Origin: a virus
Reading direction: 5' to 3' (one strand)
DNA: 64,000 bases
Virus record (IMG/VR): IMGVR_UViG_3300045988_182914
Span: 28,339 to 92,338 of that record
The first letter of the stretch is position 1, and the number at the start of each line of letters is the position of its first letter. This document shows positions 5,688 to 63,438 of the stretch, in pieces. The notes under the pieces are model-generated. The model ran no database searches. It was not told the DNA's origin and saw only the letters and a program-made list of their open reading frames with translations. A program made the translations under genes and the position numbers.

Positions 5688-5762
5688 AATTTATATTTCC
5701 TCCATTTTTCTTTTTTCTATACAAAGAGTATGTTCGATTTATTAATATTCGAAAAACTATCA

Positions 5763-5800
5763 TTTTATAAATTGATAGTTATAATTTTTTGTGATATAAT
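5763..5800 (+). promoter_or_regulatory. Sigma70-like promoter TTGATA-17-TATAAT upstream of the plus-strand gene 5840..6313
   Basis: ttgatagttataattttttgtgatataat, read directly. Confidence 0.5.
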
Positions 5801-5839
5801 GAATGCAGATGGAAACATTGAGAGAAAAGGAGAAAAAAT

Positions 5840-6313
5840 ATGTCAAATGCAGAAATTGCAGCATGGGAGCTGGATAAAAAATTAGATGGCAGGTCTTTAC
5901 GTTACAAGATTGAAGACGCCCCTTATTATAAAAATCATAATGAAAAATCATTTGATACAATTCGGGAAATGTTGGAGCGCGTTGGTGTTAATCTCGAAAA
6001 AGACGATGACTGTCTTTCTATTTCAATTAATTCGCAAAAATACGCTGCCGCAGCAAGAACCTACGCCGGGCGCGGCCGCCGGTTTGCGTATCCCAAAAAT
6101 GAATATAAGGCATATACATATTCTGACATTGTATATATGCTTAACAGCATGTCTAACGATGAGGTTGCCTCTAAAATAGACATGCCGATTGCCACGTTTT
6201 ACAGGCACAAAAAAAGACTTGTAAATTCTGATTATTATAAGGCACTCGACACATCCAGACTGGATGACATCGAATACCTGAAAAGCTGCAGAGATTCCGA
6301 TATTTGCTTCTAA
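5840..6313 (+). CDS. Hypothetical protein, possible HTH-containing
   Basis: 157 aa ORF with RBS aaggagaaaaaat before the ATG. Segment SNDEVASKIDMPIATFYRHKKRL looks HTH-like. Confidence 0.55.
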   Translation: MSNAEIAAWELDKKLDGRSLRYKIEDAPYYKNHNEKSFDTIREMLERVGVNLEKDDDCLSISINSQKYAAAARTYAGRGRRFAYPKNEYKAYTYSDIVYMLNSMSNDEVASKIDMPIATFYRHKKRLVNSDYYKALDTSRLDDIEYLKSCRDSDICF

Positions 6314-6554
6314 ACAAAAAACCGCTGGATTATCCTGGCGGTTTTTCTGCATTTCTTGGCACGTACAGTATCTGCATAAAAATGTACCCAAATTGGGCAG
6401 ATAAACAAAAAGAGTACCCGTAACGGATACTCTTTTTTGTTTATTTCTTTGTAAATTCATACGGCTTCATTCTGGCATAATTGCAGTACATACCGGGATT
6501 TTCCCGTTGACTGTATATGTCAGGAACTAACGTTACTTTTTTCATGGCAGTTTC

Positions 6555-6980
6555 CTATGCAATAAAGTCAAACTTTACACCGCCGACTTTGCATTTCTGA
6601 ACTTCTGGATTAAAATTTTCAATTACCAGAAATTCATCTATACGGCATAATCCTGTTTCAAGTTCCTTGTCATTGAATGACTCTAAAAAATCTTTACAGT
6701 TGCCATCATACACCTCGTCGTATTCATCAGTTAATGGCTCTTCACTGTCACCATATATAATAACATCTTCATTATCAAGAGTTTCTTGTTTTGGATTTTT
6801 AAGCTTTATTATACAGTCACCGTTTATATCATGCTGAAGATGTTCATATGTAACAAGTATATCTGATTTGGACATATGCACTGGAAAGTCAAAGAATAAA
6901 GAATTTAATTCTGTATCATATTTCTTATACTCTGACATTACATGCTCGTACAATTCTTGTGAAGTTTTTATCGATTCCAT
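6555..6980 (-). CDS. Hypothetical highly acidic protein
   Basis: 141 aa, rich in D and E. Confidence 0.5.
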   Translation of the reverse strand: MESIKTSQELYEHVMSEYKKYDTELNSLFFDFPVHMSKSDILVTYEHLQHDINGDCIIKLKNPKQETLDNEDVIIYGDSEEPLTDEYDEVYDGNCKDFLESFNDKELETGLCRIDEFLVIENFNPEVQKCKVGGVKFDFIA

Positions 6981-7053
6981 ATTTTCTCCATTCTACCTGC
7001 CTATAAAGGGCAGGATTTTAAAAATCCATGCCCTTATTGGTCATGTTTACATG

Positions 7054-9174
7054 TTATTCTCCTATCATCTCAAGGAATTCATCCTCAGAAATGATAGGCA
7101 CGCCAAGTTCCTTAGCTTTCTTATTCTTTCCTGATGTACTTTCTACATCATTATTAATAAGATAGCTGGTTTTCTTAGTTACAGAGCCGGTTGCTTTGCC
7201 ACCCAGTTCTTCAATTTTCGTCTGCAATTCTGCACGGTTCTTGAAATGGTTAACTGAGCCGGTGATAACAAATGTCTTGCCGGAAAGAATATTTTTACTA
7301 GCAGGTACATCTGCTTCTGCTGGAACCTCGACATCAATCCATCTGAGCAAGTCATAAACTTCGGCATTGTTTGAGATTCTCCACATCTCATCCAGTAAAT
7401 TCTTCTCAAATGGAATCCATCCAAGATATCTGCTGCCCCAGTCCCAAAGACTGAGCTCAATCTTTTCTCCAATTCCGTCTATGCCTGTAAAACATTTACG
7501 ATTATAGACATCGTTGAAAAACTTCCTGACATCACCTTTGTAGGCCTTGTCAAACAATTTTGCCTGTCCTTTTCCTACCATAGGAATACCAAGCGCATGG
7601 ATAAACGGTACAAATGTTGTCTTACGGCTTCTCTGAATTGATTTCCAAATATTGTCATATGACTTCTGTCCAAAACCATCCATTGCAGCAATGTCACGCT
7701 CAAAAGTATCAAGTCTGTACAGATCTGCAAGCTGCTTAATGAAGCCCTTTTCAATAAATTTCTCAAGGGTTTTCTCTGACAGACCGATAATATCCATGCA
7801 GTCTCTCTCGCAGAAATGTACGAATTTCTTAACCTGCTTTACAGCACAGTTAGGATTTGTACACATCTCTACCTCAACGTCTCTGTCACCAGAATGTGTA
7901 ATCATTGGCGATGTTTCCATGCCACACACCGGACATGTACATGCATGAGACTCAGCGTAAGTAAGCTCATCTCCCGGTGTCATGTTTTTATCGACCTGTG
8001 GAATTATTTTATTACTTTTGAACACTGAAATCTTATCACCAACTCTCAGACGCAGTTTTTTAACGATTGATACATTATGTACGCTCGCTCTTGTAACTGT
8101 AGTTCCCTCAAGCTGTACCGGATCAAAGACTGCAACAGGATTAATACGTCCTGTTCTGCTAGGAGACCATTCAATTTCTCTCAAAGTGGTTTCAACACAC
8201 TCGTCAGCCCACTTGAAAGCAAAGCCTGTGAGCCTGTTAGGATGATGTCCTGTGACAGGAAGCGCGTCAGCAACTCTGTAATCATCCGATGCAACAACAA
8301 GTCCGTCTACAGGATAATCCAGTGTCTCTACTCTATCAGAGAAACTATTCATAACATTGATAATCTGATCCGGTAAATCTGAATCTACATCTGGATTGCT
8401 TGAATAAGCTCTTGCAAGCTCATGTTCAACAACACCAAATCCCAGTCTCTCAAGCAGTGTCAATGCACCAAAGAAAGTTTCAGGTACCTCAATTTTGTCA
8501 TCAGCAGCAGGCTCTATATGCACAAGCTTAAAAGCTTTAAACATAACCTTTCTGCCTCTAAGACCTGGTTCTTTGATTGTTATTGTTGAATTTGCAAGAT
8601 TACGAGGATTTGAATACTCCTCTTCATCCTCTTCCAGATTTGAATTAATTCTTTCAAATTCTGAATAAGTCATGAGAGCTTCACCTCTGGCCACTAATTT
8701 TCCTTTAAAACCAATGGTCATTGGAATACCTTCGATGTATGGTGCCTGATGAGTTATATCACTTCCTACCTCACCATTTCCGCGAGTAACAGACTGTACC
8801 AGACGGCCATTATTGTATTCCAGTACTATAGTACTACCGTCAAGTTTCCACATGACGTTACAGACTCCATCCCAAGACTCAGAAAAGACTTCTGGAAATT
8901 CGTTAATATCCTTTGTCTTATCAAGCGACAGTGCCGGAAACTCATGTTTGACTTTCTTAAGGCCATTTCCGCCAATCTCATCTGCACCAACTTTTTGTGT
9001 TGGGGAATCCGGCAGAATAATCCCTGTCTCTTTCTCAAGCTGTGCAAGCTCATCAAACATTGTATCCCACTCATAATTCGACATGATTTCGTCTTTGCCA
9101 TTATAGTAGGCATCTGATGCCTCATTCAGCTTGTTGATAAGTTTCTCCATGATTTTTACGTTTTCGTTGTTCAT
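7054..9174 (-). CDS. ligA: NAD+-dependent DNA ligase LigA
   Basis: 706 aa. Adenylation motif KLDGSTIV (KxDG), OB fold, Zn-finger CxxC, HhH and C-terminal BRCT, all in canonical LigA order. RBS GGAGGA sits upstream. Confidence 0.95.
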   Translation of the reverse strand: MNNENVKIMEKLINKLNEASDAYYNGKDEIMSNYEWDTMFDELAQLEKETGIILPDSPTQKVGADEIGGNGLKKVKHEFPALSLDKTKDINEFPEVFSESWDGVCNVMWKLDGSTIVLEYNNGRLVQSVTRGNGEVGSDITHQAPYIEGIPMTIGFKGKLVARGEALMTYSEFERINSNLEEDEEEYSNPRNLANSTITIKEPGLRGRKVMFKAFKLVHIEPAADDKIEVPETFFGALTLLERLGFGVVEHELARAYSSNPDVDSDLPDQIINVMNSFSDRVETLDYPVDGLVVASDDYRVADALPVTGHHPNRLTGFAFKWADECVETTLREIEWSPSRTGRINPVAVFDPVQLEGTTVTRASVHNVSIVKKLRLRVGDKISVFKSNKIIPQVDKNMTPGDELTYAESHACTCPVCGMETSPMITHSGDRDVEVEMCTNPNCAVKQVKKFVHFCERDCMDIIGLSEKTLEKFIEKGFIKQLADLYRLDTFERDIAAMDGFGQKSYDNIWKSIQRSRKTTFVPFIHALGIPMVGKGQAKLFDKAYKGDVRKFFNDVYNRKCFTGIDGIGEKIELSLWDWGSRYLGWIPFEKNLLDEMWRISNNAEVYDLLRWIDVEVPAEADVPASKNILSGKTFVITGSVNHFKNRAELQTKIEELGGKATGSVTKKTSYLINNDVESTSGKNKKAKELGVPIISEDEFLEMIGE

Positions 9175-9219
9175 ATTTTATTTCCTCCATTTTTCTTTAT
9201 ATATAACCTCAGTGACACA

Positions 9220-10186: not shown

Positions 10187-10280
10187 ATTTGTTTTTCCTC
10201 CATTTTTCTTTATTTTTATATGGAAAGTATGATAGTTTTTACATTATTGGCACAAAAAAAAGAGGGAAAACCCTCTTTTT

Positions 10281-10886: not shown

Positions 10887-11007
10887 ATTTGTTTGTCCTC
10901 CATTTCTCTTTTTCTTTATTACACAAAAAGTATGATAGTTTTTACATTAATGAAATTTTGCACACAAAAATCCCGGCACATGCGTACCGGGAAATTAATT
11001 ATTATTT

Positions 11008-11274
11008 TTAGCTTTTCTGTACTTTTCTGTATTCATTCATGGTAAGCGCGATATAATCTGACACATTACTTTCGGGCTTTGGAAAAATTTCCTTGCATTT
11101 TCTTTCCAGCTCATCTGCCTGCTCATCAGATAAGCGGTATACAATCTCATGCTTTCGTCCACGGGCGTCTACATAAAAACATGTAAATGTTGGCATCATG
11201 TAAGTGTTCAAAAAACAGAGAAAGTTCTTTATACTCATTTTGTCCATTTTCTCTTTTGTCAGATGCTTTGTCAA
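11008..11274 (-). CDS. Hypothetical small protein
   Basis: 88 aa ORF. The IS element abuts its start. Confidence 0.4.
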   Translation of the reverse strand: MTKHLTKEKMDKMSIKNFLCFLNTYMMPTFTCFYVDARGRKHEIVYRLSDEQADELERKCKEIFPKPESNVSDYIALTMNEYRKVQKS

Positions 11275-11279
11275 CTACT

Positions 11280-11417
11280 CACGACCTAAAGGTCATGGGC
11301 TTGTAACTGCCCAGTCGTACTAACAGCTTACGCCTCCGACCTTTAACCCCAATAGATATCGCTATCTAAAGTGGCGTTACATCGCAGGGTGGTTGACAGC
11401 ACCCTTTGCAACAAAGT
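11280..11417 (-). ncRNA. Putative omega RNA (guide RNA scaffold) encoded at the 3' end of tnpB
   Basis: Location immediately 3' of the tnpB stop, as in characterised IS605 TnpB systems. Structure not verified. Confidence 0.4.
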
Positions 11418-12557
11418 TTACTCTGTTGCAACTGTATCAGGTACTTGGCTATCAGAAAGATAGTTTATTCCCATACGATACAGATTCATAGCTCCGATAC
11501 GGTCATCATTGGACTGATAGCCACAGTTTTTACAAGTAAACAAATGTATTTTCTTGTTACGGTTAGACTTTTCCGTATGCCCACAAACAGGACAACATTG
11601 ACTCGTATAACGAGGATCTACCTTAATTACAGAAGATTGATTCTGCTTTGCCTTGTAAATTAGTTTCTGTTCTAAACCATAGAACGACCACGACACAGAA
11701 ACATAACGGTCTTTTGTTTTGACACGCTCTGTAGCATTGCGAATACCCGACAAATCTTCTAATACAAAGAGTGTATGCTTCGGGTTATTCTCAACGAGTG
11801 CCTTCGATACACAATGGTTCACATCTTGCATCCAACGGTTTTCTCGCTGACCGATAGCTTTTAATCTTCGCCTTGAAGATGGAGTTTGTCGCATTTGGAG
11901 TTTTTTGCGAAGTTTGGAATAGTTAGCACGTTTCTGCTTGATAGCTTTTCCACTAACAAATCCAGACTTGTGATGACTGTCATAGGTTGCAACAACGAAG
12001 TTAATTCCTCTGTCAATGCCTACGACATTACAAATGTCAGAAATATTACTTTCTTTGACATCATAAGTTACTGGTATGTGAAGATAATATTTACCATGTT
12101 TGTTTGTGAGCTTGGCTGTACCAAACTTGTAAATAGAATGGTCAAAATATTTAGACATACCTTCAGCGAAATATGGCAGTTTAACACGACCATTCAGCGT
12201 ATTCACAGAAAAACAGTTTTGCGTTAAAGAATAATCTCTGTTCCAAACTAAATCATACTGAGGTTTCTTGAAGGTTGGTCGTATCCATTTATTTTGATTT
12301 TCGAGAATAGCTCTATATCGTGCAATGACCGTTTTCAAAACGGACTGAGCCATTTGCGATTTCAAACCAAATTTTTCTCTTAGAGTAGAATACAAAACTT
12401 TATTCAGTGAAAACTGCTTTAAATCATGAGTCTTGAATACATAGTCTGAAACATAATCACAGGCATCACGATAAACAGACATAGTTTCATCAAGCAAAAC
12501 TTTATCTGCATCAGTAGCGACTATTTGAACTTTTGCTGTTATAGTCATCTGTTCCAT
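11418..12557 (-). CDS. tnpB: TnpB (IS605 OrfB, RuvC-like RNA-guided nuclease)
   Basis: 379 aa. RuvC motifs GIDRG, LEDL and NDDRIGAMNL, plus zinc finger CPVCG...CKNCG. Confidence 0.9.
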   Translation of the reverse strand: MEQMTITAKVQIVATDADKVLLDETMSVYRDACDYVSDYVFKTHDLKQFSLNKVLYSTLREKFGLKSQMAQSVLKTVIARYRAILENQNKWIRPTFKKPQYDLVWNRDYSLTQNCFSVNTLNGRVKLPYFAEGMSKYFDHSIYKFGTAKLTNKHGKYYLHIPVTYDVKESNISDICNVVGIDRGINFVVATYDSHHKSGFVSGKAIKQKRANYSKLRKKLQMRQTPSSRRRLKAIGQRENRWMQDVNHCVSKALVENNPKHTLFVLEDLSGIRNATERVKTKDRYVSVSWSFYGLEQKLIYKAKQNQSSVIKVDPRYTSQCCPVCGHTEKSNRNKKIHLFTCKNCGYQSNDDRIGAMNLYRMGINYLSDSQVPDTVATE

Positions 12558-12640
12558 AGATGTACTCCCTTCATTGATATCTCACTAGATATAGTATATA
12601 ATATTAGTTAGTGAAAGTCAATAATTATCAGAGGTAGGCT

Positions 12641-13045
12641 ATGGACAATAGATATAATCGTCATAACAGACGAAAATACAGTCTAAAAGTACATATAGTT
12701 CTTGTAACTAAATATCGTAAGAAACTACTAAAAGGTTCTATTGCTGACGATGTTAAGCAAAAGATTTTTGATATAGCCAATACTCGTGGCTACGAAATAA
12801 TCGCTATGGAAGCAGACAAAGACCACATGCATTTTTTAATAAGTTATGATACGACTGATAGGGTTTGCGATATTGTTAAGATTGTAAAACAAGAAACACC
12901 ATATTACCTATGGCAAAAGTATGGCTCGTTTCTGTCTAAACAGTATTGGAAGAAAAGGATATTTTGGTCAGACGGATACTTTGCTTGCAGTATTGGAGAA
13001 GTATCGTCAGCGACTATACAAAAGTATATTGAAAGTCAGGGTTAA
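12641..13045 (+). CDS. tnpA: IS200-type TnpA (Y1 HUH transposase)
   Basis: 134 aa. Matches the IS200 family across ...HIVLVTKYRKKLL...HMHFLISY... including the HUH motif. Confidence 0.9.
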   Translation: MDNRYNRHNRRKYSLKVHIVLVTKYRKKLLKGSIADDVKQKIFDIANTRGYEIIAMEADKDHMHFLISYDTTDRVCDIVKIVKQETPYYLWQKYGSFLSKQYWKKRIFWSDGYFACSIGEVSSATIQKYIESQG

Positions 13046-13117: not shown

Positions 13118-13558
13118 TTAATTTATGAAAATTGGCGCGTATATCTTACTCTTAACCCGCCAAATTATCAAATAAAGCGGTTGTCGGGCCATTAGAAACA
13201 GCTTTACCGAAAGGCAAATTGGTAGTACATCGACAATCAACTGCAGAAATGTTATACGATCTGGACCTATGTCAGCACAAAGACTGCTAACGCCAAGCAT
13301 ATCGTATTTGTAAATACAATGCGTTATATATGCTCCAGCCAGGCCTCCTGCCATAATGTACAGCATGTGCATGACAGCCTCGAAAACCACCTGTGTCTTA
13401 TACCCGCGCTGCCTGTACTTCTCCCTTGCATAGTCCGCATTTTCTGCTATTTTTGTCTCTTCAACTTTCTTTTCAATTTTTGCAAAAGTTGCTCTTTCCT
13501 CTATACTGCTTTCAATTTCTTCTTTTATGACTGAAAATATCTCTTTGATTTTTCCCAT
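13118..13558 (-). CDS. Hypothetical membrane protein; 3' end possibly altered by the IS insertion
   Basis: Start MGKIKEIF downstream of conserved motif at 13570..13605. Hydrophobic C-terminal segment. The ORF ends at the IS boundary. Confidence 0.45.
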   Translation of the reverse strand: MGKIKEIFSVIKEEIESSIEERATFAKIEKKVEETKIAENADYAREKYRQRGYKTQVVFEAVMHMLYIMAGGLAGAYITHCIYKYDMLGVSSLCADIGPDRITFLQLIVDVLPICLSVKLFLMARQPLYLIIWRVKSKIYAPIFIN

Positions 13559-13679
13559 CTGTAATTTCTGTCCTTTCGCGGATGTTCTACAAAGAGTATG
13601 ATAGATTTTTCTTATGTTTGCTTCATTTCCATCTAGGCAGCCCGCAAAAAAAAAAGCCGCGCAATGCAGCTCTCCTTTT

Positions 13680-13937: not shown

Positions 13938-14161
13938 TTTTGTTCCTCCTTAATCCCAGTCTTCCTTTTGTTCCTCCTTAATCCCAGTCTTCCATTGCAG
14001 CGACTGCTTCTTTTATGTCTTCTTTGCTTCTCCAGATACGGCACGCGTCGCATATCTTTATATTTTTTTTGTATGCGCACACCATCTCTCTTACCGCGCA
14101 CCTTAACCAACGCAATGTGCGCTGAATTTCCTGATGCACCGCAGAAATAGCATTCGTTCAT
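13886..14161 (-). CDS. Hypothetical Cys-containing basic protein
   Basis: 91 aa. Start MNECYFCG directly downstream of conserved motif at 14165..14212. Confidence 0.4.
   Translation of the reverse strand: MNECYFCGASGNSAHIALVKVRGKRDGVRIQKKYKDMRRVPYLEKQRRHKRSSRCNGRLGLRRNKRKTGIKEEQKWKQTGEMKLLSFMTHF
13942..13997. repeat. 28 bp tandem duplication (2 copies) duplicating the RBS region upstream of 13680..13937
   Basis: gttcctccttaatcccagtcttcc[ttt/att]t occurs twice in direct tandem. Confidence 0.8.
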
Positions 14162-14164
14162 GTT

Positions 14165-14212
14165 TTATCTCCACCTTTCTTTTTTATATAGAAAGTATGT
14201 TAGATTTTGTAA
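14165..14212 (-). promoter_or_regulatory. Example of the recurrent conserved promoter/5'UTR element (gene orientation AAAATCTAACATACTTTCTATATAAAAAAGAAAGGTGGAG)
   Basis: One of about 30 near-identical copies, each placed immediately upstream of an ATG. Confidence 0.6.
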
Positions 14213-16741: not shown

Positions 16742-16966
16742 TTTCTTTACCTCCCAGATTTGAATTCCGATTAATGCTTACATATAAAGTATGATAGAAA
16801 CAAAAAAAATAACGGTTTTAATGAATTTACTGCGCAAAAAATCTCCTGACAACGTCAGGAGATGAATGCGCTGGATTTATATAGAAGCACATATCAGTAT
16901 GGATAAAAAATCATACTTATATCAGAAAGGCCAGCCTTATAAAACAAACCAGAGGAGGTGAATTCC

Positions 16967-18232
16967 ATGAGACAGATGAATCAGATGCCGTACATTATCG
17001 GCGCGGTAATACGCATATATCCTAGCAATAAACAGAAGCGCATTATCGCCAAAAATGACGGCGCCGCGCGTTTCATATATAACAGGCTTGTTGCCCGCGA
17101 CAGGGAGCTTCACGCCCTTGGAAGGGTCAAAAGATATTGTGAGCCTGTAGCTGCACGCATCTCATATCTTAAATCTCTTGGAACAAACCTCTCGGATTTG
17201 AAGGCTGTATATCCGTTCCTTGAGGATAAGGAAATTGATTCCCTTGCTGTCTGCAATGCAAAACAGAATTACCAGACCGCATGGAACAATTTCATGAAGG
17301 TCCCGGGCACGTCGATACCAACATTCCATAAAAAGGGATATTCAAAATCATACCAGACGAACTGCCAGTATCCTTCGGGATGCACCGACATCAAAAAGGG
17401 GAGTGTACACATGCTTGACCGTAAACATGTTCAGGTTCCAAAGCTGGGTTCTGTCAAGTTTAAGGATTCCGGCATGCTGCGGCGTATTTTTGCCAGAACA
17501 TCCGAAACACGCATAGGCTCAGTAAAAGTTGCAATGGATAACTGCGGCGACTACTGGATCTCCATGCAGGTCGGTTCGGTAGGTCCGCTCCACAATGCAA
17601 TGCCCGCAGTCGGACATGGTGTCGGAATAGATGTAAATGTCAAAAACCTTTACACGGACTCAGACGGAAATGAGGCTGAAAATCCAAAATTCTACACAAA
17701 AACAGAAAAGAAACTTGCCAAGGCACAGCGAAAGCTCTCAAGACGCATGGAGCGTGCCAAAAAAGACGGCAGGTCTTTATATGATGCAAAAAACTACCAG
17801 AAGCAGAGGCTTAAAACTGCAAAAATAAGCAGGTCAGTATCCCGCAGGCGCAAGGATTACCTTAATGTCCAGAGTAAGCGTTTAGTCGAAAGCCAAGACT
17901 TTATATTTACTGAGAACTTAAGCTCCAAAGCCATGATGAAAGATAATGACTATGCCAAATACATAGCTGATGTCGCATGGAGTAAATTCATCACAATGAT
18001 AAAATATAAATGCGGATTCTACGGCCGCATATTCGGCATGGTTCCGGCCAAAAACACCACGCAGATGTGTCATGTGTGCGGATTTATACTTACCGGTGAC
18101 AGTAAGCTCTCATTCAACGACCGTTCGTGGACATGTCCTAACTGCGGCACCTTCCATATGAGGGACCACAACTCTGCCATAAACATAAAAAACAGCGGAA
18201 CCCGGTTGTATTTACCAGATCCCGCTTTATAA
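16967..18232 (+). CDS. tnpB: TnpB (IS1341-type, no adjacent tnpA)
   Basis: RuvC-I GIDVNVKN, E in FTENLSS, RuvC-III RDHNSAINI, zinc finger CHVCG...CPNCG. GGAGG RBS before the ATG at 16967. Confidence 0.9.
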   Translation: MRQMNQMPYIIGAVIRIYPSNKQKRIIAKNDGAARFIYNRLVARDRELHALGRVKRYCEPVAARISYLKSLGTNLSDLKAVYPFLEDKEIDSLAVCNAKQNYQTAWNNFMKVPGTSIPTFHKKGYSKSYQTNCQYPSGCTDIKKGSVHMLDRKHVQVPKLGSVKFKDSGMLRRIFARTSETRIGSVKVAMDNCGDYWISMQVGSVGPLHNAMPAVGHGVGIDVNVKNLYTDSDGNEAENPKFYTKTEKKLAKAQRKLSRRMERAKKDGRSLYDAKNYQKQRLKTAKISRSVSRRRKDYLNVQSKRLVESQDFIFTENLSSKAMMKDNDYAKYIADVAWSKFITMIKYKCGFYGRIFGMVPAKNTTQMCHVCGFILTGDSKLSFNDRSWTCPNCGTFHMRDHNSAINIKNSGTRLYLPDPAL

Positions 18233-18425
18233 GACAATGAACACGCGTAGTTTGACAACTCACTACGTAACCGCTCCTTTACTGGTGTGCCACTGGCTGT
18301 CACTTCTGCGGAAGGACTTTCAAGCACGCTTTATCCGAGTAAGCTGTCTTCACAGACACGGATGTTTACACAAACTTCCGGTTTACAGACAGGTTTCCGA
18401 CAACGTCGGGAGTAGTTGACTTCTG
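18233..18425 (+). ncRNA. Putative omega RNA 3' of the solo tnpB
   Basis: Position only. Region contains stems such as ccggtttacagacaggtttccgacaacgtcgg. Not verified. Confidence 0.35.
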
Positions 18426-18502
18426 CCATATTATGATGTCCTCCTAAATCATTCAGTACTTATGCCAAAAGTATTATAGAAAATTAAAAACCAGCAGCTC
18501 TT

Positions 18503-18662
18503 TATATGGAAAGCCATTTTTCAAAATCATTTCTGACATACTATATGTGTAAAACAGGAATACAGATAAGCCTGTTAACATACAACTCCATTTTTCTTTT
18601 TAGATATGAGTCGGGGACGAAAGCCTCCGGCTATACGTTTGTCCAAAATTCCAAAAACAAAG
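18503..18662 (+). repeat. Structured repeat element, copy 1 (also at 53518..53662 and split at 61729..61812 + 62391..62445)
   Basis: About 85-90% identity among copies. Contains a conserved hairpin with a GAAA loop that shows compensatory changes between copies. Confidence 0.75.
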
Positions 18663-18943
18663 GCCATATACCCACAAAAGAGCACATGACCTCTGCTGCT
18701 GAACAGCACGGCGCAGCCGCTTCGCGAAATGCTTTTGCGCCATGGATGCTTTATAGCTTTGCTGTCGTTCATGCACCATTAAGTGGCTGTGCACAGGCCG
18801 ACAGTAGACAGGCCAGCCAAAGCCTGCCCGGCATCAACGGGCATCCCTTTCGTTTCTGCTGCTGCCTCTTGGGCCCTTCGACCCGGGAAATTCATGCAGC
18901 ATTCATTTCCTTCATTAAGTATGATTTATTTTTTCGCAAAAAA

Positions 18944-18976
18944 GAAGCCGGGCGATCAGAACCCGGCTTCGAAAAG
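18944..18976 (-). terminator. Rho-independent terminator hairpin (aagccgggcgatcagaacccggctt + T-run on minus strand)
   Basis: Perfect 9 bp stem followed by cttttttgcg on the minus strand. Confidence 0.6.
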
Positions 18977-19417: not shown

Positions 19418-19448
19418 TTTCTAACATACTTATGATATACAGAGAGAA
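19418..19448 (+). promoter_or_regulatory. Forward-oriented copy of the conserved promoter/5'UTR element upstream of cas12a
   Basis: tctaacatacttatgatatac about 30 nt before the cas12a RBS. Confidence 0.55.
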
Positions 19449-19475
19449 TTTTAAGCGAAAAAAGGAGAAATTGAG

Positions 19476-49053: not shown

Positions 49054-49245
49054 ATTTTTTCCTCCCATTTTCTTTTTTATATAGAAAGTATGTAAGAAAT
49101 TAGAAAACTGAAAATTTTTATAGCTGCATGCACGGTCGCCAGAATTTTAGGTACACTGCTTCATTTGATTTTTTGCGCAGGATTTTTCAAAAACAAAAAA
49201 CATACTAATGATATACAAAAAATTGACTATGAAAGGAATTTTTAT

Positions 49246-52586: not shown

Positions 52587-52734
52587 GAAGATGATTTTTT
52601 ATGCTTTCGTTCATAATGCCCGAAAGAACAGTATCGCAGTCCAGCACAAACGGTCCGCACTGCATCATCTTCTTTATTTTTTCAATTTTTTCATACGCTG
52701 TATAAATAGCGCTCTCCTTTTCTGCCATATTCAA
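52420..52734 (-). CDS. Hypothetical protein
   Basis: 104 aa. Motif at 52745..52790 upstream. Overlaps the 3' end of the next ORF in another frame. Confidence 0.4.
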   Translation of the reverse strand: MNMAEKESAIYTAYEKIEKIKKMMQCGPFVLDCDTVLSGIMNESIKNHLLERTGVSGEIFDIYENSVDQKSVSELFEVLTGRSFSRYLSECIEAVEKKGETDNE

Positions 52735-52901
52735 TTTCCTCCATTTCTCTTTTTCTGATATAAAGAGTATGTTTGAAAGAACAAAAATGGCATCAAAAAA
52801 AGTCCCGGTGAAATCCAGAACCTTTTGTTATTGAGAAAACCAAACATTTCCATATAAAATAAAAAATCATACTTTTTTTAAATAATCGCAAAAAAAAGGA
52901 A

Positions 52902-53495: not shown

Positions 53496-53517
53496 TAAAT
53501 AAAAAGTCAGCCAGACT

Positions 53518-53662
53518 TATATGGAAGGCCATTTCTCAAAATCATTTCTGACATACTATATGTGTAAGACAGAGGAAATCTGTTAATACACAACTCCAAT
53601 TTTCTTTTTAAATATGGGCCGGGCGCGAAAGTGTCCGGCCATACGTGTGTCCAAAAACGCAA
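53518..53662 (+). repeat. Structured repeat element, copy 2
   Basis: See copy 1. Hairpin GGCCGG-GCGC-GAAA-GTGT-CCGGCC at about 53608..53633. Confidence 0.75.
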
Positions 53663-53802
53663 AAACAGGAGCTGGAAAATATCCAGCCCCTGTTTTTGAT
53701 ATTTATTAAACAAATCATAAAGGAGTGTATACGCAGGGACTATTCTTCCCTGCAATATAAGTATGATATATTTTTCTTTCGATTTTCAGCTCTTCAGAAA
53801 AA

Positions 53803-55042: not shown

Positions 55043-55609
55043 TTATGCTACATAGTCTAAATCAGCAACATTATCCACTGTTGCCTCATAGACTGCCTCA
55101 ATTTTTCCCGGCACATGACTGCCGATTTTAAGTGCATTTGCCAGTGTCAGGGCATCATCCCTGTTTACAGCGGCGACAAATGCCCGTCTGCCGCCTGTGA
55201 ATTCAACGATATAATACTTATACCGTTTCACCCTGTCAGCAATCTGTTTTGCCTTATTGATGTATAAAAACAGTTTTTCACGCTCATCTATCTCGTATCT
55301 GAGAAGATCCTCGTTACTCTTGTTTCTATAATACCAGTAAGTTTTTTCTCTTGCAGTCTGATAGCTGCAATTGTACTGCTTCATAAACTGGCGCACATTC
55401 GCATGCCATCTGCCCTTACTGATGTTGTTCATCAGCTCATTGTTTGAAAACAGGTCATCAACGGTCACATCATGCACAAGCGCGTATTTTTTTAAAAAAT
55501 CCATCGCCTCATACATATCAGTGCGGTCATCTATTGTGACCTGTTTCAGCTTTTCAGTGTCGGTTATTAACTTCCTTATCGCCTCCACTTCTTTTTCACT
55601 TAATTTCAT
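55043..55609 (-). CDS. Hypothetical protein
   Basis: Likely start MKLSEKEV after GGAGGAAAAAAT. Motif at 55620..55660. Confidence 0.5.
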   Translation of the reverse strand: MKLSEKEVEAIRKLITDTEKLKQVTIDDRTDMYEAMDFLKKYALVHDVTVDDLFSNNELMNNISKGRWHANVRQFMKQYNCSYQTAREKTYWYYRNKSNEDLLRYEIDEREKLFLYINKAKQIADRVKRYKYYIVEFTGGRRAFVAAVNRDDALTLANALKIGSHVPGKIEAVYEATVDNVADLDYVA

Positions 55610-55882
55610 ATTTTTTCCTCCATTCTTCTTTTTTATATGGAGAGTATGATATAAATTGAAAAAATGAAGTCTTCCGGCGACAACACCGAGCCCTGGCAAT
55701 GACGATATTTTCAAAATATCGTCAAACGGATATCTTTTCTGTATGTCCAAAAAGCCAGCAAATACAAGGCTTTCAGCCACTTTGCAGTATGGTGTCAAAA
55801 GAATCCGGACAAATTCCAAATAATATGACACCAAAAAAAAAGAGCCGCATCTCTGCAGCCCTTTGTTTATCATATCACTTTC

Positions 55883-56101
55883 TTATTCGCCGATTTCATA
55901 GACGACAAGAACGCTGTTAAGTCCCGCAACAGGCGTAACCGACACCACCCTTGCATTCTTTTCTTCCAGCGCATAGTTAATTTCATCCTCGGCGTCAGAG
56001 GCGGAATACATTTTTGCCACCTGTTTAGGCTTCGGTTTGTTGAGCAGATATTTCAAACAGCCGACCAGCTCGACTCCCGCCCTTGTTTCCCATACGTTCA
56101 T
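55883..56101 (-). CDS. Hypothetical small protein
   Basis: Start MNVWETRAG after GGAGGAAACTATC. Motif at 56110..56150. Confidence 0.45.
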   Translation of the reverse strand: MNVWETRAGVELVGCLKYLLNKPKPKQVAKMYSASDAEDEINYALEEKNARVVSVTPVAGLNSVLVVYEIGE

Positions 56102-56237
56102 GATAGTTTCCTCCATTCTTCTTTTTTTATATGGAAAGTATGTTAGATTTTGCATAAACCGGTATATGGTTTTCCATATAAGTATGCAAAAAAAGAGCCG
56201 CATTTCTGCAGCCCTTTATTGACCCAAGAGTAACTCC

Positions 56238-59062: not shown

Positions 59063-59530
59063 CTAAATCAATTTTCCTGCACGAAAAGAGTAATAGCCGT
59101 CTGTTCCAACTATGATATGGTCACAGAGCTCGATTTTCATCAGCTTTCCCGCTTCCATAACCTCTTTTGTTGTGTTTATATCATATTTTGACGGCGACAC
59201 ATCACCTGTAGGATGATTGTGGACCATAACAAACTGTGATGCTCCGCACAGCATAAGACGTATAAAAATTTCTCTGGTGCCTACAATCGAAGCGCTGACG
59301 TTGCCATGGGAAATCTCAAAGACGCCAAGCGGTCTGCACTTGACATTCATGGCAATAACCCATACGTGTTCCTCTGCCAGATATGAAGCATTAAAGACAT
59401 CATCCATGACCTTTTTGATCTTTTCCGGTGATGTCATTTTGTCCACATCCGGACAGTTCTTTGATTCCTCCTTAACTAAATAAGGATGCTGCTCCTCATT
59501 GAGCAGCATGTCATACTTTGTCACTCTCAT
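59063..59530 (-). CDS. RadC-like JAB/MPN-domain protein
   Basis: Start MRVTKYDM after GGAGGAAACAAA. Metal-binding signature HNHPTGDVSPSKYD (HNHPSG...PS..D). Confidence 0.8.
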   Translation of the reverse strand: MRVTKYDMLLNEEQHPYLVKEESKNCPDVDKMTSPEKIKKVMDDVFNASYLAEEHVWVIAMNVKCRPLGVFEISHGNVSASIVGTREIFIRLMLCGASQFVMVHNHPTGDVSPSKYDINTTKEVMEAGKLMKIELCDHIIVGTDGYYSFRAGKLI

Positions 59531-59820
59531 TTTGTTTCCTCCATTTTTCTTTTTATATGAAAAGTATGATAGAAAATAAAATACTGGACGCGAAAAACCG
59601 GCATCATTTCTGACGCCGGTTCCTCTTAGATGTCCGTAACTTTTTTGCGGTCGGATGTTCAGCTCTGACTGCACCATAAGTATGATAGATTTATTTTTCG
59701 TTTATTGCTTTCTATATAAGTTTTTGCATTAATATTCGCGAAAATGACCAAATCTCATTTTTCCTTTTTCTGACATACTTTCTGCAGATATTTTTTTTCA
59801 GAGAGGAGGAATAACAAACA

Positions 59821-60967: not shown

Positions 60968-61649
60968 TATGTTTTTCCTCCTGTTTTCTATACTCAATCG
61001 AAAAACTTTCGATAGTGCCGATGAAACCGTTTAAGTTTTCCAGCCAGAGTTTTACACTTTTGTATGCATCCTCCATCCTGCCGTTATTAATATAGTGGTC
61101 AACAAATTCCTGCGGAATTTCTGTTTCCGATGGCAGAACTGACAGATATTTTTCTGTATAGTCCTTGCCGGTCATTACATCAATGACACTCCACTTGATG
61201 TCCGCAGCATACCACTTCCTGGCGCAGATAACTGTGCCATCATCTTCCACAGCATAGCCTGGAAGAATCATTAACGCGCTTAAGGTTATAATCTTCTCAT
61301 CTGCAGAAAAGGCCTTAAACTTTGCTGAGTCTATAATTGCTTTTGTATTTCTGCCCATTTCTACGACAAGCCCATGCAAGCTCTGCCAAAACTCAGGTGT
61401 TGCCTCCATGTCAATGAACCTGCCTGTCTCAGGCGCCTCTTTTCCGAAAAGCATTTCCTGACAATTTGGGCAGTAGCCTGTCTTTATGAACTCTCGCTCA
61501 AAGGCATCGAAGTCTGTAAGCTCGTCTTGTATCCTGCCACCATACATTGCATAGTGGCGATGCTCCGCTGCCATCGTCTCATCTTCTTTGAGTCCTATAA
61601 CCCTGCCGCACATCGGGCAGGTTCTCTTGATAAGTTCTGTTGTCTTCAT
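60885..61649 (-). CDS. Hypothetical protein with N-terminal zinc ribbon
   Basis: 254 aa with CPMCG...CPNCQ. Its 3' end overlaps the next gene by about 80 nt. Motif at 61660..61700. Confidence 0.5.
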   Translation of the reverse strand: MKTTELIKRTCPMCGRVIGLKEDETMAAEHRHYAMYGGRIQDELTDFDAFEREFIKTGYCPNCQEMLFGKEAPETGRFIDMEATPEFWQSLHGLVVEMGRNTKAIIDSAKFKAFSADEKIITLSALMILPGYAVEDDGTVICARKWYAADIKWSVIDVMTGKDYTEKYLSVLPSETEIPQEFVDHYINNGRMEDAYKSVKLWLENLNGFIGTIESFSIEYRKQEEKHNGGMDNYRRVDRIRALCKQIYRNKRRG

Positions 61650-61858
61650 TCTTTATATCCTCCATTTTTCTTTTTTTATATAAAGAGTATGATTGAAAGT
61701 AGAAAAACGAAAGGCTGTATGTGTTTTTATATGGAAAGCCATTTCTCAAAATCATTTCTAACATACTATATGTGTAAGACAGAGGAAATCTGTTAATACA
61801 CAACTCCAATTTGTTGAAATGACGGAAAGGAAAAATATGAAATATTTATTTTTTTTTA

Positions 61859-62131
61859 TTGTATGTAATAGTGGTAGGAGAGTTTTTGTTCAGCAGTCCA
61901 ATAAAAATTAAGAAAAACAGTGGTAATCCACGAGGACGGTATTTTTATAAACTGAGTGGTATTATTAACGTTATTTTTGGTAGTAGTGGCATAATTGCTA
62001 TAAATATATTGTTGATGAATAAGAATATTGTTCCACAAATGTACGTGTGGATAGGTATTATTGGTTTTATGCTCATTGAAGTATATGGAATGTTCTGTAT
62101 AGTAAAAATGATGTTATCGGTTGAACCTTAA
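61859..62131 (+). CDS. Small hydrophobic membrane protein (cargo of the insertion)
   Basis: 90 aa, 2 TM segments, very AT-rich. Confidence 0.4.
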   Translation: MYVIVVGEFLFSSPIKIKKNSGNPRGRYFYKLSGIINVIFGSSGIIAINILLMNKNIVPQMYVWIGIIGFMLIEVYGMFCIVKMMLSVEP

Positions 62132-62165
62132 CATCCCGATAAATTATGATTTGTGAGGTGATTAT

Positions 62166-62372
62166 ATGAAATGTCCTAAATATATTAAAGAAGCTCTTGA
62201 TAAGAGATTAAAGGCTGCACAACAATTTAACCATTACGATTTGATTGTTAGTGAATACATAGATAAGCATGATTTAGACGTAGATTCCTGTCATTATCAT
62301 GGTGGTTGCGAAAGTATTGTATTTCCCGAATCTTCTTATCACACAATCTTAGAAGCAATCAAAGAAAAATAG
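62166..62372 (+). CDS. Small soluble protein (cargo of the insertion)
   Basis: 68 aa. RBS gtgaggtgattat before the ATG. Confidence 0.4.
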   Translation: MKCPKYIKEALDKRLKAAQQFNHYDLIVSEYIDKHDLDVDSCHYHGGCESIVFPESSYHTILEAIKEK

Positions 62373-62490
62373 ACAGTTAAACTGAAATTTTCTTTTTAAA
62401 TATGGGCCGGGGGCGAAAGTCTCCGGCCATACGTGTGTATAAAAAGAAAAGAGAGGGAAAAATCCTCTCTAATCTTTTTGTTTTGACAAA

Positions 62491-63339
62491 TTAAAGGATT
62501 ACAAGCTGCCCTGTTGCTGCATTACACAGGTATGCATTGTTGGAAAGCTGCTCCTCTTCGGCCACCTCTGAGCCATTTACCTCTTTTACGAGGTCACTCA
62601 GATTGCTACCGAACGACATGTACGCTGGCAAAGCCAGTATTTCGTGGACAGACGACGGAATCAGCACGAGGTTTGTTTCCCCAAGCATCTGACTGATGCG
62701 CTTCACGACACGTCTGCTTGTGATTACGCCTGCACCAAACGATGTTGCTGCATTTGTTACAACAAGCATTGGAACTGGGTCTTCAATCTCCATATCTGCA
62801 GGAAGAAGTCCCTTTTCCTTTAACACGTCCATGATAGACATGATATTCACGTCTGCTGCGACATTTGCTTCCGCCGCCAGCCATGCCTCTTCCAAAGTCA
62901 CTCCAGTCACCTTGCAGACAGCATCTGCGAGCACGAAGCTGCTGTCTTCCTGTACACAGGAGGCATCTACACGGATGTATTTTTCAATACCCTGTGCAAA
63001 TGGCTTTACGACATCTGTTTCTTTGCCGCTGCCAGCCCTGCGTAAGCAGACCTTTGCAGTCTTAAGGATATTATCCCTTGTTACGGGATTTGCCTTTGAG
63101 GCTACATTGTACTGCGCCCTCATGTCAGCAGCAACCTCAGCGAGAGCGACATACACATCTTCGTTCTTGCATGCATTGACATGGTTTGCAATGTCATCAG
63201 TAACATTAAAGGACGGCCTTACGCTCTCCTTGCCAATGATGACAGATGGCTGGCCGTCTTTTTCTCCAACCATTGCCATTCCAGCCTCTAAACCGTTAAT
63301 TGTTTCTGCCACCATTGTGGCAATTTCCTTCTTTGTCAT
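62491..63339 (-). CDS. Hypothetical protein (about 282 aa)
   Basis: Start MTKKEIATMV after GGAGGAATTTAAC. Motif at 63345..63390. Confidence 0.5.
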   Translation of the reverse strand: MTKKEIATMVAETINGLEAGMAMVGEKDGQPSVIIGKESVRPSFNVTDDIANHVNACKNEDVYVALAEVAADMRAQYNVASKANPVTRDNILKTAKVCLRRAGSGKETDVVKPFAQGIEKYIRVDASCVQEDSSFVLADAVCKVTGVTLEEAWLAAEANVAADVNIMSIMDVLKEKGLLPADMEIEDPVPMLVVTNAATSFGAGVITSRRVVKRISQMLGETNLVLIPSSVHEILALPAYMSFGSNLSDLVKEVNGSEVAEEEQLSNNAYLCNAATGQLVIL

Positions 63340-63438
63340 GTTAAATTCCTCCATTTTTCTTTTTTGATATAACAAGTATGTTAGAATTAATAAAAATGAA
63401 AAAAGCCTGCAGGAATTATCCCACAGACTCTTTTTTGA

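Follow-up and report, generated by a model that had tools for sequence, protein, structure and literature searches.

Introduction

Mobile elements that encode a sigma factor together with promoters private to it are already known. In Bacillus subtilis, the plasmid pBS32 encodes SigN (ZpdN), a sigma factor expressed from a sigma-A entry promoter and from a promoter that depends on SigN itself, with a plasmid-confined regulon that includes replication genes (PMC6751061). At the level of the whole replicon, the nearest described elements are the Hodor megaplasmids of human-gut Bacillota, which are conjugative, measure 211-389 kb, have been mis-filed among huge phages and viral contigs, and carry TnpB insertion sequences (PMC12934698). 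Hodors have a GC content of 44.6-47.1% and encode Rep_3, ParA/ParB, sortases and a type I-C CRISPR system; the words sigma and promoter do not occur in the paper that describes them (PMC12934698). Here we analyze a motif that is repeated in front of the genes of a 64,000-nt stretch of DNA (the window), positions 28,339 to 92,338 of IMG/VR record IMGVR_UViG_3300045988_182914, which corresponds to bases 212,544-276,543 of ENA scaffold BRIT16-1_SAMN02334043_METAG-scaffold_9 (315,257 bp). We consider it probable that this motif is the general promoter of a conjugative megaplasmid-like element of ~300 kb from human-gut Lachnospiraceae (probably Agathobacter), and that it is read by a sigma factor of the element's own. 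What is new is the consensus, its apparent use across a ~300-kb replicon common in the gut, the two-class architecture with a palindromic box, and a standard leader with a matching multi-copy small RNA.

Results

A 15-nt core recurs throughout the window

The initial annotation of the window had described about 30 copies of a promoter and 5′ untranslated region (5′UTR) element of ~45 bp, conserved without interruption. We gathered the copies by extracting all the coordinates listed there and then each WCATACT in the window. All 30 listed positions carry a WCATACT core in the orientation claimed; the list was incomplete, having missed plus-strand copies at 16911, 18536, 53551, 61761, 49200 and 52867 and minus-strand copies at 1889, 3954 and 18924. 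The repeated unit is a core of ~15 nt, aaaTCTAwCATACT, with about 40 copies in the window and CATACT invariant, and the core-aligned consensus of 40 intergenic sites reads aAaaTCTAaCATACTttt.aTAtAaaaaa. The repetition was therefore real, but not the length: the form of 42-45 nt is one subclass of 15 copies, so that continuous conservation over ~45 bp holds for one third of the copies only, and the remaining ~25 have just aaaTCTAwCATACT in common, with divergent sequence downstream. A position weight matrix (PWM) of the 17-nt core, of the kind that the annotation had proposed, gave 37 window matches at 14 bits or more, versus 0.55 in Markov shuffles. The leader 16-mer AAAGAAAAATGGAGGA gave 14 matches at up to 2 mismatches, with 0.23 expected. 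Searching for the full 42-nt element (up to 11 edits) returned only 15 copies, every one on the minus strand, and an ungapped search with a 33-mer consensus (up to 3 mismatches) recovered just 2, because the length of the A-run varies.

The copies fall into two classes. In class B (15 window copies plus 4 partial ones) TTCCATATAAAAAAGAAAAATGGAGGA comes after the core and the ATG another 5-10 nt on, giving about 28 nt of unbroken conservation; most class B copies lack an upstream element. In class A (about 15 copies, with the box at about 12 window sites) the core is preceded at a constant distance by a partly palindromic box, TTATATGGAAAGCCAT (in the form cTTATATGGAAAGCCAT), and CATACT is followed by a TATAAT-like hexamer and then G. 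This upstream box, TTATATGGAAAG(CCAT), stands at a constant offset from the core and had been overlooked in the initial annotation. Its conserved part, TATATGGAAAG, ends 23 nt upstream of CATACT, and at 30 class A sites of the pooled loci described below its first base falls exactly 33 nt ahead of the W in WCATACT, with spacer sequences that vary. The strict bipartite pattern TTATATRGAAR-N19-TCTNWCATACT had 12 exact matches in the window and none in shuffles. Where class B copies do have a box, it lies 3-4 nt more distant and forms a clearer palindrome (TATATGGAAAGCCATATG), and reverse-complementing the left half of the box gives exactly the class B tail CTTTCCATATAA. In a minority of copies an inverted repeat made of box and downstream half-site (up to 15 nt) flanks the core, which then lies in the loop. 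The TATAAA that the annotation had included in the element is confined to class B; measured from the invariant core, it is 5 nt more distant than the class A TATAAT. A variant that we call class A′ (plus strand, 18536, 53551 and 61761) consists of a class A promoter followed by a conserved non-coding unit. Pooling all fetched loci and removing near-duplicates left 107 WCATACT sites; 47 have an upstream box, 30 have the class B half-site, and in 15 the two occur together.

The core has the layout of an extended −10 promoter

The core lies 26-56 nt (median 43) from the start codon, in gene orientation, and the start codons have Shine-Dalgarno sequences; only 3-4 strong core matches fall within genes. 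In the 46-64 kb sub-region we counted 41 hairpins resembling intrinsic terminators, versus 11.9 in shuffles, many of them immediately upstream of a copy, whereas sigma-70-type matches showed no enrichment there (47 versus 42.1 in shuffles). Given the terminators and the placement of the promoters, many small genes look like self-contained units of terminator, promoter, leader and gene. The orientation, the spacing of 26-56 nt, the upstream terminators and the conservation of the box in diverged relatives, in which the same promoters are present, all support the promoter and 5′UTR reading that the initial annotation had favored.

Base counts over 62 dereplicated sites showed T-C-T to be almost invariant at positions −4 to −2 from the W, followed by CATACT. 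Further downstream, 61 of these 62 sites have a pyrimidine at +12 and a purine at +13, a step that lies 6 nt past CATACT. If the purine 7 nt past CATACT is taken as the predicted start (+1), CATACT would occupy −12 to −7 and TCTA −17 to −14. Sigma-70-family factors flip out the bases A-11 and T-7 on promoter opening, and both are retained in CATACT, as in a −10 hexamer recognized by this family. The extended −10 promoter of Firmicutes is TRTGnTATAAT, and TCTA-N-CATACT has the layout of TRTG-N-TATAAT in other letters; the geometry thus fits a sigma-70-family extended −10 promoter. No −35 element is found 16-18 nt upstream of the −10, the normal −35 position holding just a weak CCAT, and there is no TTGACA-like hexamer 16-18 nt from CATACT or from the TATAAT that follows it. 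A missing −35 is compatible with an extended −10 promoter or with an activator-dependent one. The annotation was correct that CATACT-10-TATAAA does not fit a −35/−10 pair; a better reading would take CATACT itself as the −10 and the preceding TCTA as the extended −10. Its comparison with T4 late promoters did not hold up, since TATAAA is missing from class A, where the corresponding hexamer has a different distance from the invariant core.

The operon of a divergent sigma-70-family gene carries the motif

No gene for a sigma factor or an RNA polymerase was found within the window. Related contigs encode a 311-aa protein (P0001/P0007) with a weak Pfam match to Sigma70_r4_2 (E 0.004), a match to NCBIfam TIGR02937 just under the cutoff (E 1e-9, 38 bits) and a match to PHROG 351 (sigma factor). 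A relative with 51% identity (P0006) passes the TIGR02937 cutoff and is matched by RpoS, FliA and SigB/F/G models as well, and one source labels a member of the cluster a sigma-70-family factor. The family is small, with 18 relatives at E ≤ 1e-3 among 1.84 billion representative proteins; 7 of the 15 aligned members match Pfam Sigma70_r2, and others match r3 or r4. An AlphaFold model of the 311-aa protein had a pLDDT of 73.8, and 50 of the 50 PDB matches listed for it were sigma factors (SigB, SigD, sigma-S, sigma-32, sigma-A, sigma-28 and WhiG), over 235-315 aligned columns. Both the sequence matches and the model therefore place the protein in the sigma-70 family as a putative, highly divergent factor with regions 2, 3 and 4.

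The sigma gene occurs on contigs of 86-297 kb, with contigs of 220-300 kb of the same family among its carriers, near an Xre gene, MoxR/vWA genes, an exonuclease, SSB and a 1,376-aa Pol III alpha. In one such backbone locus (L046) almost every gene has the core in front of it: this holds for the operons of MoxR and of the sigma factor, for SSB and Pol III alpha and for six more, and the box accompanies several of these cores. The sigma operon begins with an open reading frame (ORF) of 41-46 codons (MTFSEAIAFQKAEEKVNSNPLLKEAKK..., L002:47379-47504, with homologues in L056 and L057) that overlaps the sigma start and is kept in three diverged lineages; its product may be a leader peptide that is coupled, or else a partner protein, for instance an anti-sigma factor. 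The motif precedes the operon as aaaaaaaTCATACT in the main lineage, as tatCATACT where the sigma factor is 64% identical and as tagCATACT where it is 51% identical, and on the contig of the 51%-identical factor the neighboring divergent gene has CATACT too. The link between sigma factor and motif is thus one of co-occurrence, circumstantial in kind: the motif stands before the sigma operon in three diverged lineages. It supports the alternative sigma factor that the initial annotation had listed among its readings, in that the element family has a divergent sigma-70-family gene whose own operon carries the motif.

The annotation had also suggested looking for such a gene in the full element. 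It was found on related contigs and not on the scaffold of the window itself, where look-ups covered ±10 kb around window proteins; a metagenome scan with the sigma factor returned 6 loci, all on other contigs. The link between the window and the sigma factor therefore rests on two loci. In L053, DNA 85-90% identical to window positions 5680-9193 (ligA, a 157-aa gene and the promoter at 5733) is joined directly to a MoxR-vWA-Xre-sigma module, and in GenBank record MT835474.1 the sigma gene is accompanied by DNA that matches the window's end at 97.8% identity.

The window belongs to a conjugative megaplasmid-like element

Human-gut metagenomes contain many contigs of 285-320 kb that encode proteins of the window, and one 169-aa protein was found in 1,808 blocks of a public assembly collection. 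The window has a GC content of about 39%, and its genes are mostly small and without a recognized family. Those that can be recognized encode LigA, DnaJ, an AAA ATPase, BspA-type leucine-rich repeat (LRR) proteins, a giant vWA protein, flotillin, RadC, DUF5688, a ProQ-like protein (1281-1652), NAD salvage enzymes, two TnpB proteins and Cas12a with a long degenerate array, as well as six tRNAs. Two small helix-turn-helix (HTH) proteins are encoded, one Xre-type of 74 aa (38050-38274, plus strand) and one of 157 aa at 5840.

Three GenBank records from a faecal virome, MT835474.1, MT835533.1 and MT835946.1 (L001-L004), are related and have the same promoters; they are unannotated and labeled "UNVERIFIED: Bacteriophage sp.". 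MT835474.1 has genes for type IV secretion, partition and a sigma factor: among its products are a VirD4 coupling protein and a VirB4/TraC-like ATPase, a RecD2-like helicase, a partition protein of the actin-like kind, and MoxR and vWA proteins, and the gene of an Xre repressor lies divergent from the sigma-like gene. From this gene content the element is a conjugative megaplasmid-like replicon of ~300 kb rather than a phage, and the phage label is probably wrong, or else the DNA was co-purified with or packaged in particles.

We then asked where else the motif occurs. With one genome for each of 185,579 species, the plausible matches to the strict bipartite pattern were four Eubacterium/Agathobacter loci (L018, L020, L021 and L023), among which no native chromosomal gene was demonstrated; L023 lies in a mobile-element region, and L020 is a copy of the nad operon with possibly chromosomal flanks. 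A scan of IMG/VR gave 3 contigs with the bipartite pattern and no match to a class B 20-mer, and in a search of a plasmid database an IS605 tnpB was the sole match. The host is likely Agathobacter or a close relative within the Lachnospiraceae, because the nad genes recur at 95% identity, together with the internal class A promoter, on a contig of an isolate of this genus.

Host-type promoters occur in the same DNA

A few genes of the window have canonical promoters. The head of the nad operon has a perfect TTGACA-17-TATAAT (12/12) at 44048-44076 (minus strand), the 157-aa HTH-like gene at 5840 is preceded by an extended −10 promoter of the sigma-A type, TTGATA-17-(TGTGa)TATAAT, at 5772-5800 (plus strand), and the IS200/605 tnpA gene has TTGATA-17-TATAAT. 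The initial annotation had assigned sigma-70-like promoters to the nad operon and to the gene at 5840, and both are indeed canonical; within the nad operon there is a CATACT promoter as well, at 41987, which the annotation had listed as a copy. Canonical promoters were seen only at these imported or exceptional genes. Their presence in the same DNA indicates that the host consensus is ordinary and that the CATACT set is a distinct class.

The NAD-salvage operon (39984-44076, minus strand) encodes an NrtR-NUDIX-NMNAT fusion, PncA, NAPRTase and NadE, and is 95% identical to a contig (L020) of the isolate Agathobacter sp. LCP21S3_B2, internal class A promoter included. Because its promoter is a perfect host-type one, the operon was probably taken up as cargo from the host and hints at what that host is. 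The 157-aa protein (5840-6313, plus strand) matched no family and has an HTH-like C-terminus (ASKIDMPIATFYRHKKRL). Indexed in 1,112 blocks, it adjoins the sigma module in L053 and a class B copy in the window, and is a candidate early regulator or box-binding protein.

The IS200/605 unit (11270-13045, tnpB plus Y1 tnpA) is 92% identical to copies on Finegoldia magna plasmids. A second tnpB at 16967-18232 has a class A CATACT promoter, unlike tnpA with its canonical sigma-A promoter. Six tRNA genes (Lys, Tyr, Phe, Ser, Ser, Cys; 38283-38971, plus strand) lie opposite to most genes, directly behind the Xre-type gene, and no CATACT promoter was found for this cluster; a box-like TTATATGAA with CATATT at the tRNA cluster and the Xre gene at 38050 has the wrong spacing and was not counted as a further copy.

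Distribution of the individual copies

The class B copies, all on the minus strand, begin at 5688-5741, where the core TCGAACATACT and CTTTGTATAGAAAAAAGAAAAATGGAGGA are followed by the ATG of a 269-aa gene. They continue at 10187-10240 (before a DUF7666/pentapeptide gene that starts MNNEE), 10890-10943 (a gene starting MNNED), 14155-14208 (with an upstream box at a shifted offset), 29104-29157, 37417-37470 and 39829-39882 (both with an upstream box too), 48134-48187 (with a divergent leader), 49048-49101, 52727-52780 and 55604-55657. The copy at 56098-56151 is nearest to the consensus (2 edits), and its upstream box is a perfect palindrome, TATATGGaaaaCCATATA. The last three are at 59524-59577, preceding radC, at 61647-61700, divergent from the small-RNA promoter at 61761, and at 63336-63389, preceding the DUF5688 gene and immediately behind a terminator. 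On the same strand, a core with a partial class B tail (3909-3962) precedes the DnaJ-domain gene, and further core copies precede a 146-aa gene (13556-13609), an 822-aa BspA-LRR gene (16749-16802) and a 129-aa gene (29986-30039).

Class A copies on the minus strand lie at 1876-1923 (the box TTATATGGAAAG, 23 nt, then CATACT and TATAGT), 35739-35786 (preceding a 198-aa gene), 36602-36649, 41974-42021 (in the gap between pncA and the NAPRTase gene of the nad operon, and kept in the Agathobacter isolate contig L020) and 46824-46871 (CATACT, TATAAT and G). On the plus strand they precede tnpB (16877-16924; gene at 16967-18232) and cas12a (19390-19437; gene at 19476-23267). Three class A copies, all on the minus strand, are "gene-less": 19176-19223, for which a short structured RNA with a AUUCCUCC stretch is predicted, 29325-29372 (CATACT, TATAAT and G) and 59672-59719, upstream of the class B copy at 59569. 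Two other "gene-less" copies on that strand have a core and a TATATT discriminator without a box. From the first (19021-19068) an RNA of ~85 nt is predicted, ending at a terminator near 18938, and from the second (53753-53800) an RNA of ~100 nt, convergent with the small RNA at 53564; the RNAs from 53753-53800 (minus strand) and 53564 (plus strand) end in one common bidirectional terminator. The core alone is found on the minus strand at 18911-18932, immediately behind a terminator, and in a weak form at 19325-19346, divergent from the cas12a promoter; on the plus strand it precedes a VirD4-like 391-aa gene (49192-49213), a 194-aa gene (52859-52880) and a 97-aa gene (59765-59786).

A shared leader and complementary small RNAs

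The leader can occur apart from the core. At ligA, an internal gene, the leader TTATATATAAAGAAAAATGGAGGA is present and CATACT is absent (9177-9205, minus strand; TTATATATAAAGAAAAATGGAGGAAATAAAAT, then ATG), and the leader was therefore retained independently of the promoter. The initial annotation had named ligA among the genes into which the near-identity extends, but had overlooked that its copy consists of the leader only. It was right about the shared MNNE starts, which we confirmed for 3 genes, with identity reaching 12 nt into the coding region.

The class A′ unit exists in five variants across loci, 3 of them in the window: promoter (18502-18549) plus small-RNA copy 1 at 18502-18640, promoter plus copy 2 at 53517-53700, which runs into the bidirectional terminator at 53660-53698, and promoter plus copy 3 at 61727-61815, whose seed is truncated (CUCCAAUUUG); all three are on the plus strand. 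The RNA from the predicted start begins with a hairpin of 6 bp whose loops vary, continues for ~32 nt as a single strand and then forms a hairpin of 8-9 bp. RNAalifold on the five sequences gave 15 pairs, 3 of them with compensatory changes, and left the seed single-stranded and conserved. Within the single-stranded stretch ACAACUCCAUUUUUCUUUUUAGAUAUG, 16 nt are perfectly complementary to the class B leader AAAAAGAAAAAUGGAG, Shine-Dalgarno included, and the likeness to the class B reverse complement extends to ATATG(G). Collective translational control of the class B genes by this small RNA is a supported hypothesis, to which we give slightly less than an even chance. Together with the leader-only copy at ligA, the complementary small RNA also lends some support to the shared translational operator that the annotation had offered as an alternative.

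The "gene-less" copies at 19189, 19034 and 53766 are predicted to yield short RNAs as well (19176-19066, 19021-18938 and 53753-53655, minus strand), each with a 5′ hairpin, single-stranded UUCCUC(C) or CUCCUUU, and a terminator. They are convergent with the anti-leader small-RNA genes, and this paired convergent arrangement recurs in MT835533.1 (L003, 20884/21951 versus 22449/22967). These RNAs may form a second anti-Shine-Dalgarno set. We also considered type I toxin ORFs opposite the "gene-less" copies and rejected them, as no small ORF is conserved between copies. In a comparison with Rfam 15, only tRNAs reached the gathering score within the window, and 18400-19460 had no significant match at E ≤ 1.

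Two further features lie close to small-RNA genes. Behind small-RNA copy 3 there is a possible hydrophobic ORF of 24 codons, MKYLFFFIVCNSGRRVFVQQSNKN, at ~61830-61905 (plus strand), with AAAGGAAAAATATG before it, which resembles a type I toxin. Between a small-RNA gene and the minus-strand promoters, 18600-18900 is a GC-rich stretch with overlapping ORFs on both strands. Gene callers place a 160-aa ORF there that starts upstream of the promoter's −10, and the stretch is conserved between window copy 1 and the L003 copy at 21951.

Apparent recombination within the promoter-leader element, and the CRISPR array

The junction in L053 (3063-3110) falls exactly within a class B promoter-leader: the upstream side is window-like (the 5733 promoter, window 5680-5741) and the downstream side leads into the MoxR gene of the sigma module (L046:5244). 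Considering this junction, and that the first four codons (MNNE) are common to three genes, it appears that recombination takes place at the repeats, which suggests that cargo is shuffled between megaplasmids at the promoter-leader repeats.

The Cas12a CRISPR array (23388-26940, plus strand) is very long, the repeat finder returning 34 copies for the largest family, and its repeat, GTTGAAACTGTAAGCGGAATGTCTACTnnnGTAGAT, is unusually degenerate, with variation at many positions. A 244-aa ORF (25000-25734) splits the array in two, and several blocks of spacers and repeats from one half recur in the other. The spacer at 24885-24909, AAATAAAAATCATACTCTCTGTGAA on the minus strand, is core-promoter-like (PWM 16.6 bits) and resembles the copy at 3954; it may target rival elements or the element itself. 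In a comparison of spacers with a pattern that caught 6 repeats, the only matches were the same arrays in sister contigs.

Discussion

A proposed promoter system specific to the element

In the account we propose, where recognition of the core by the sigma factor, the binder of the box, the exact starts and the small-RNA regulation are what we infer, the host core RNA polymerase equipped with the 311-aa sigma factor of the element would recognize TCTA-N-CATACT. CATACT would serve as the −10 hexamer and TCTA as the extended −10, and transcription would start at the purine 7 nt downstream. Class A promoters would additionally use the box TTATATGGAAAG(CCAT) at −47 to −31, either as an unusually distant −35-type contact for region 4 or as the site of an element-encoded dimeric regulator or activator, as the palindromic form of the box suggests. 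Class B would work without the box and bring with it a standard start region, an A-rich leader and a strong Shine-Dalgarno (TTCCATATAAAAAAGAAAAATGGAGGA); the half-site over the start, together with the shifted upstream palindrome, could allow the same regulator to repress class B. Since the sigma operon has the same promoter, the factor would exert positive feedback on its own operon, with the Xre neighbor and a host-read promoter setting the entry point. The multi-copy small RNA made from class A-type promoters would probably tune the translation of class B genes as a group. Beyond this, one may imagine a closed system with its own sigma factor, a uniform promoter on essentially the whole 300 kb, standard cassettes for dozens of unrelated cargo genes, collective gating by small RNAs, and repeats that serve as points of cargo exchange; taken as a whole, this picture is tentative, and we would not expect all of it to hold.

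Several observations weigh against this account. The sigma gene was not found on the window's own scaffold in look-ups that covered ±10 kb around window proteins, and its known places are related contigs of the same family and size. The transcription starts at the core copies are predicted from sequence. The box lies ~6 bp upstream of the normal −35 place and is shifted by 3-4 bp more in class B, and so is ill suited to a simple region-4 contact. Host sigma-A could itself read CATACT weakly, because 4 of the 6 TATAAT positions are kept. If all genes of the element, including that of the sigma factor, need the plasmid sigma factor, a host-read start would be required after transfer, and upstream of the sigma operon there is only a weak sigma-A-like match, with 9/12 positions and no better than in shuffles. 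The nad operon of the Agathobacter isolate contig, with flanks that look chromosomal, contains the internal class A promoter as well. As to the small RNA, RNAduplex energies with the leaders lie ~2-4 standard deviations beyond those of shuffled small RNAs and overlap with those of non-class-B leaders, a weak discrimination that arises because the pairing is A/U-rich, and the match between small RNA and leader could reflect an inverted duplication of the element.

The strongest rival, unlikely in our estimate, holds that host sigma-A reads CATACT as an odd −10, helped by an element activator bound to the box or by an AT-rich context, and that the plasmid sigma factor does something else. A-11 and T-7 are kept at canonical spacing to the predicted start, class A has a TATAAT-like hexamer directly behind CATACT, and a newly transferred plasmid needs host-read promoters; moreover, a dimeric HTH activator would fit the palindromic box, and beside a class B copy lies the gene of an HTH-like protein of 157 aa that is driven by sigma-A. 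Set against this, canonical TTGACA-17-TATAAT promoters in the same DNA show the host consensus to be ordinary, and C-12 and C-8, which sigma-A would select against, are invariant in more than 60 independent sites. Neither hexamer has a TTGACA at 16-18 nt, so that the pair of hexamers expected of sigma-A is incomplete, and class B copies, usually boxless, stand directly behind terminators.

It is also conceivable, though quite unlikely, that the promoter look of the 42-nt element is secondary and that the element is in the main a dispersed repeat for recombination or a common translational leader. The exact position of the L053 rearrangement junction within the element, the identity extending 12 nt into three coding regions (MNNE), the coreless leader at ligA and the small RNA complementary to the leader would all be accounted for. 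However, it is the core and not the leader that is invariant, and cas12a, tnpB, the small RNAs and the backbone genes have unrelated sequence downstream of it; the orientation and the distance to the start codon are strict, and recombination is an expected by-product of repeats.

The −10 consensus of B. subtilis sigma-G is CATACTA and that of sigma-E CATACAnT, and the closeness of CATACT to both raises the possibility of a host sporulation-type factor (of the sigma-G, F, E or K class, whose −10 starts with CATA) that would confine expression to a developmental compartment. The plasmid sigma factor is, besides, weakly similar to the SigB/F/G and FliA families. We judge this very unlikely: the −35 elements of such promoters (GnATA, ATA) were not seen at 14-18 nt and the conserved box lies elsewhere, the presence of the motif at genes for replication, partition and SSB fits poorly with expression in sporulation only, the element has a sigma factor of its own, and the bipartite motif occurs at just four loci of the reference genomes, none demonstrated to be native chromosomal.

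Scarcely likely at all is an element-encoded single-subunit or phage-type multisubunit RNA polymerase (T7, N4, phiKZ or AR9 style), which the initial annotation had entertained in its T7-like and N4-like form: the about 28 nt of unbroken conservation in class B, the size of about 300 kb, the deposit of the element as "Bacteriophage sp." and a faint resemblance of class A′ ACATACTATATG to the T7/SP6 promoter sequence CACTATAG speak for it, but no gene for such a polymerase turned up in Pfam searches of ~40 window ORFs and 10 MT835474.1 ORFs or, for the loci flanking the window and around the sigma gene, in precomputed Pfam matches (a coverage of about half of the element), the sequence between core and predicted start (−6 to −1) differs between classes just where T7-type promoters are most constrained, and a sigma-70-family gene is present whose own operon is linked to the motif.

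A promoter read by the element's own sigma factor remains the explanation that we prefer. The promoter code offers a simple rule for finding the transcription units of the element and for telling native from imported genes. It would provide a concrete sigma/promoter pair in the Lachnospiraceae, a group with few genetic tools, where an orthogonal sigma factor, a 15-nt promoter and a strong leader could be used as engineering parts. The element is widespread in the human gut, and the related GenBank records are unannotated and labeled as phage. If the small-RNA link is true, one regulator would act on many unrelated genes through a common leader borne by their cassettes, which would be unusual, and the junction inside the element suggests a route by which cargo is shuffled between megaplasmids.

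Comparison with known systems

The element shares with the Hodor megaplasmids a size of ~300 kb, conjugation, an origin in human-gut metagenomes, mis-filing as viral and the presence of TnpB. It differs from them in its GC content of ~39% in the window, Cas12a, an actin-like partition protein and a Pol III alpha of its own; the Rep_3, ParA/ParB, sortases and type I-C CRISPR system of Hodors were not seen in the examined parts, about half of the element.

Like FinP, CopA and other trans-acting antisense RNAs that cover Shine-Dalgarno sites, the class A′ RNA would be a structured RNA with a single-stranded seed between hairpins that is complementary to the ribosome-binding site of its target. 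Unlike FinP and CopA, its presumed target is a leader common to a dozen or more unrelated genes and not a single cognate mRNA, and the small-RNA genes lie in trans and are multi-copy, the regulation being predicted.

As a promoter, the motif is closest in layout to the Firmicute extended −10, with the same succession of 4 nt, 1 nt, hexamer, 6 nt and purine start, and with a −35 that is dispensable, as in class B. It departs from that promoter in having TCTA for TRTG, C for T at −12, C for A at −8 and, in class A, an extra box near −39. It resembles neither the T4 late promoter TATAAATA, from which the motif differs while its −10 keeps the extended −10 layout, nor T7/SP6 promoters, which have ~23 nt conserved through −1/+1 and a cognate polymerase gene. 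In single-strand promoters of the Frpo type a hairpin stem recreates the −35 and −10, whereas here the core lies in the loop.

The sigma factors of phages SPO1 (gp28, gp33/34) and T4 (gp55) redirect the host core RNA polymerase to a consensus of a mobile element that is not used by host sigma-A, as is proposed here, and the several promoter classes seen here suggest a programme as in those phages. The present element differs in having conjugation and partition genes, with no phage structural genes seen, and its class membership follows no obvious order of early and late genes.

The closest parallel is SigN of pBS32. Both are plasmid-encoded, very divergent sigma-70-family proteins with their promoter motif at their own gene, the dependence being predicted in the present case (PMC6751061). 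The SigN regulon includes genes for replication and nucleotide metabolism, and the CATACT motif also stands before replication genes (PMC6751061). Entry into SigN expression is controlled by a repressor, and here an Xre-type gene is divergent from the sigma operon (PMC6751061). SigN is absent from the 18 relatives of the 311-aa factor; no direct comparison of the two sequences was made. SigN is linked to LexA and cell death, and no such link is known here (PMC6751061). In the present element the consensus is TCTA-N-CATACT plus a palindromic box, and the sigma factor is a three-domain protein of 311 aa. Finally, SigN serves a subset of genes induced by damage, whereas the promoter described here apparently serves nearly the whole of a ~300-kb replicon, cargo and backbone alike (PMC6751061).

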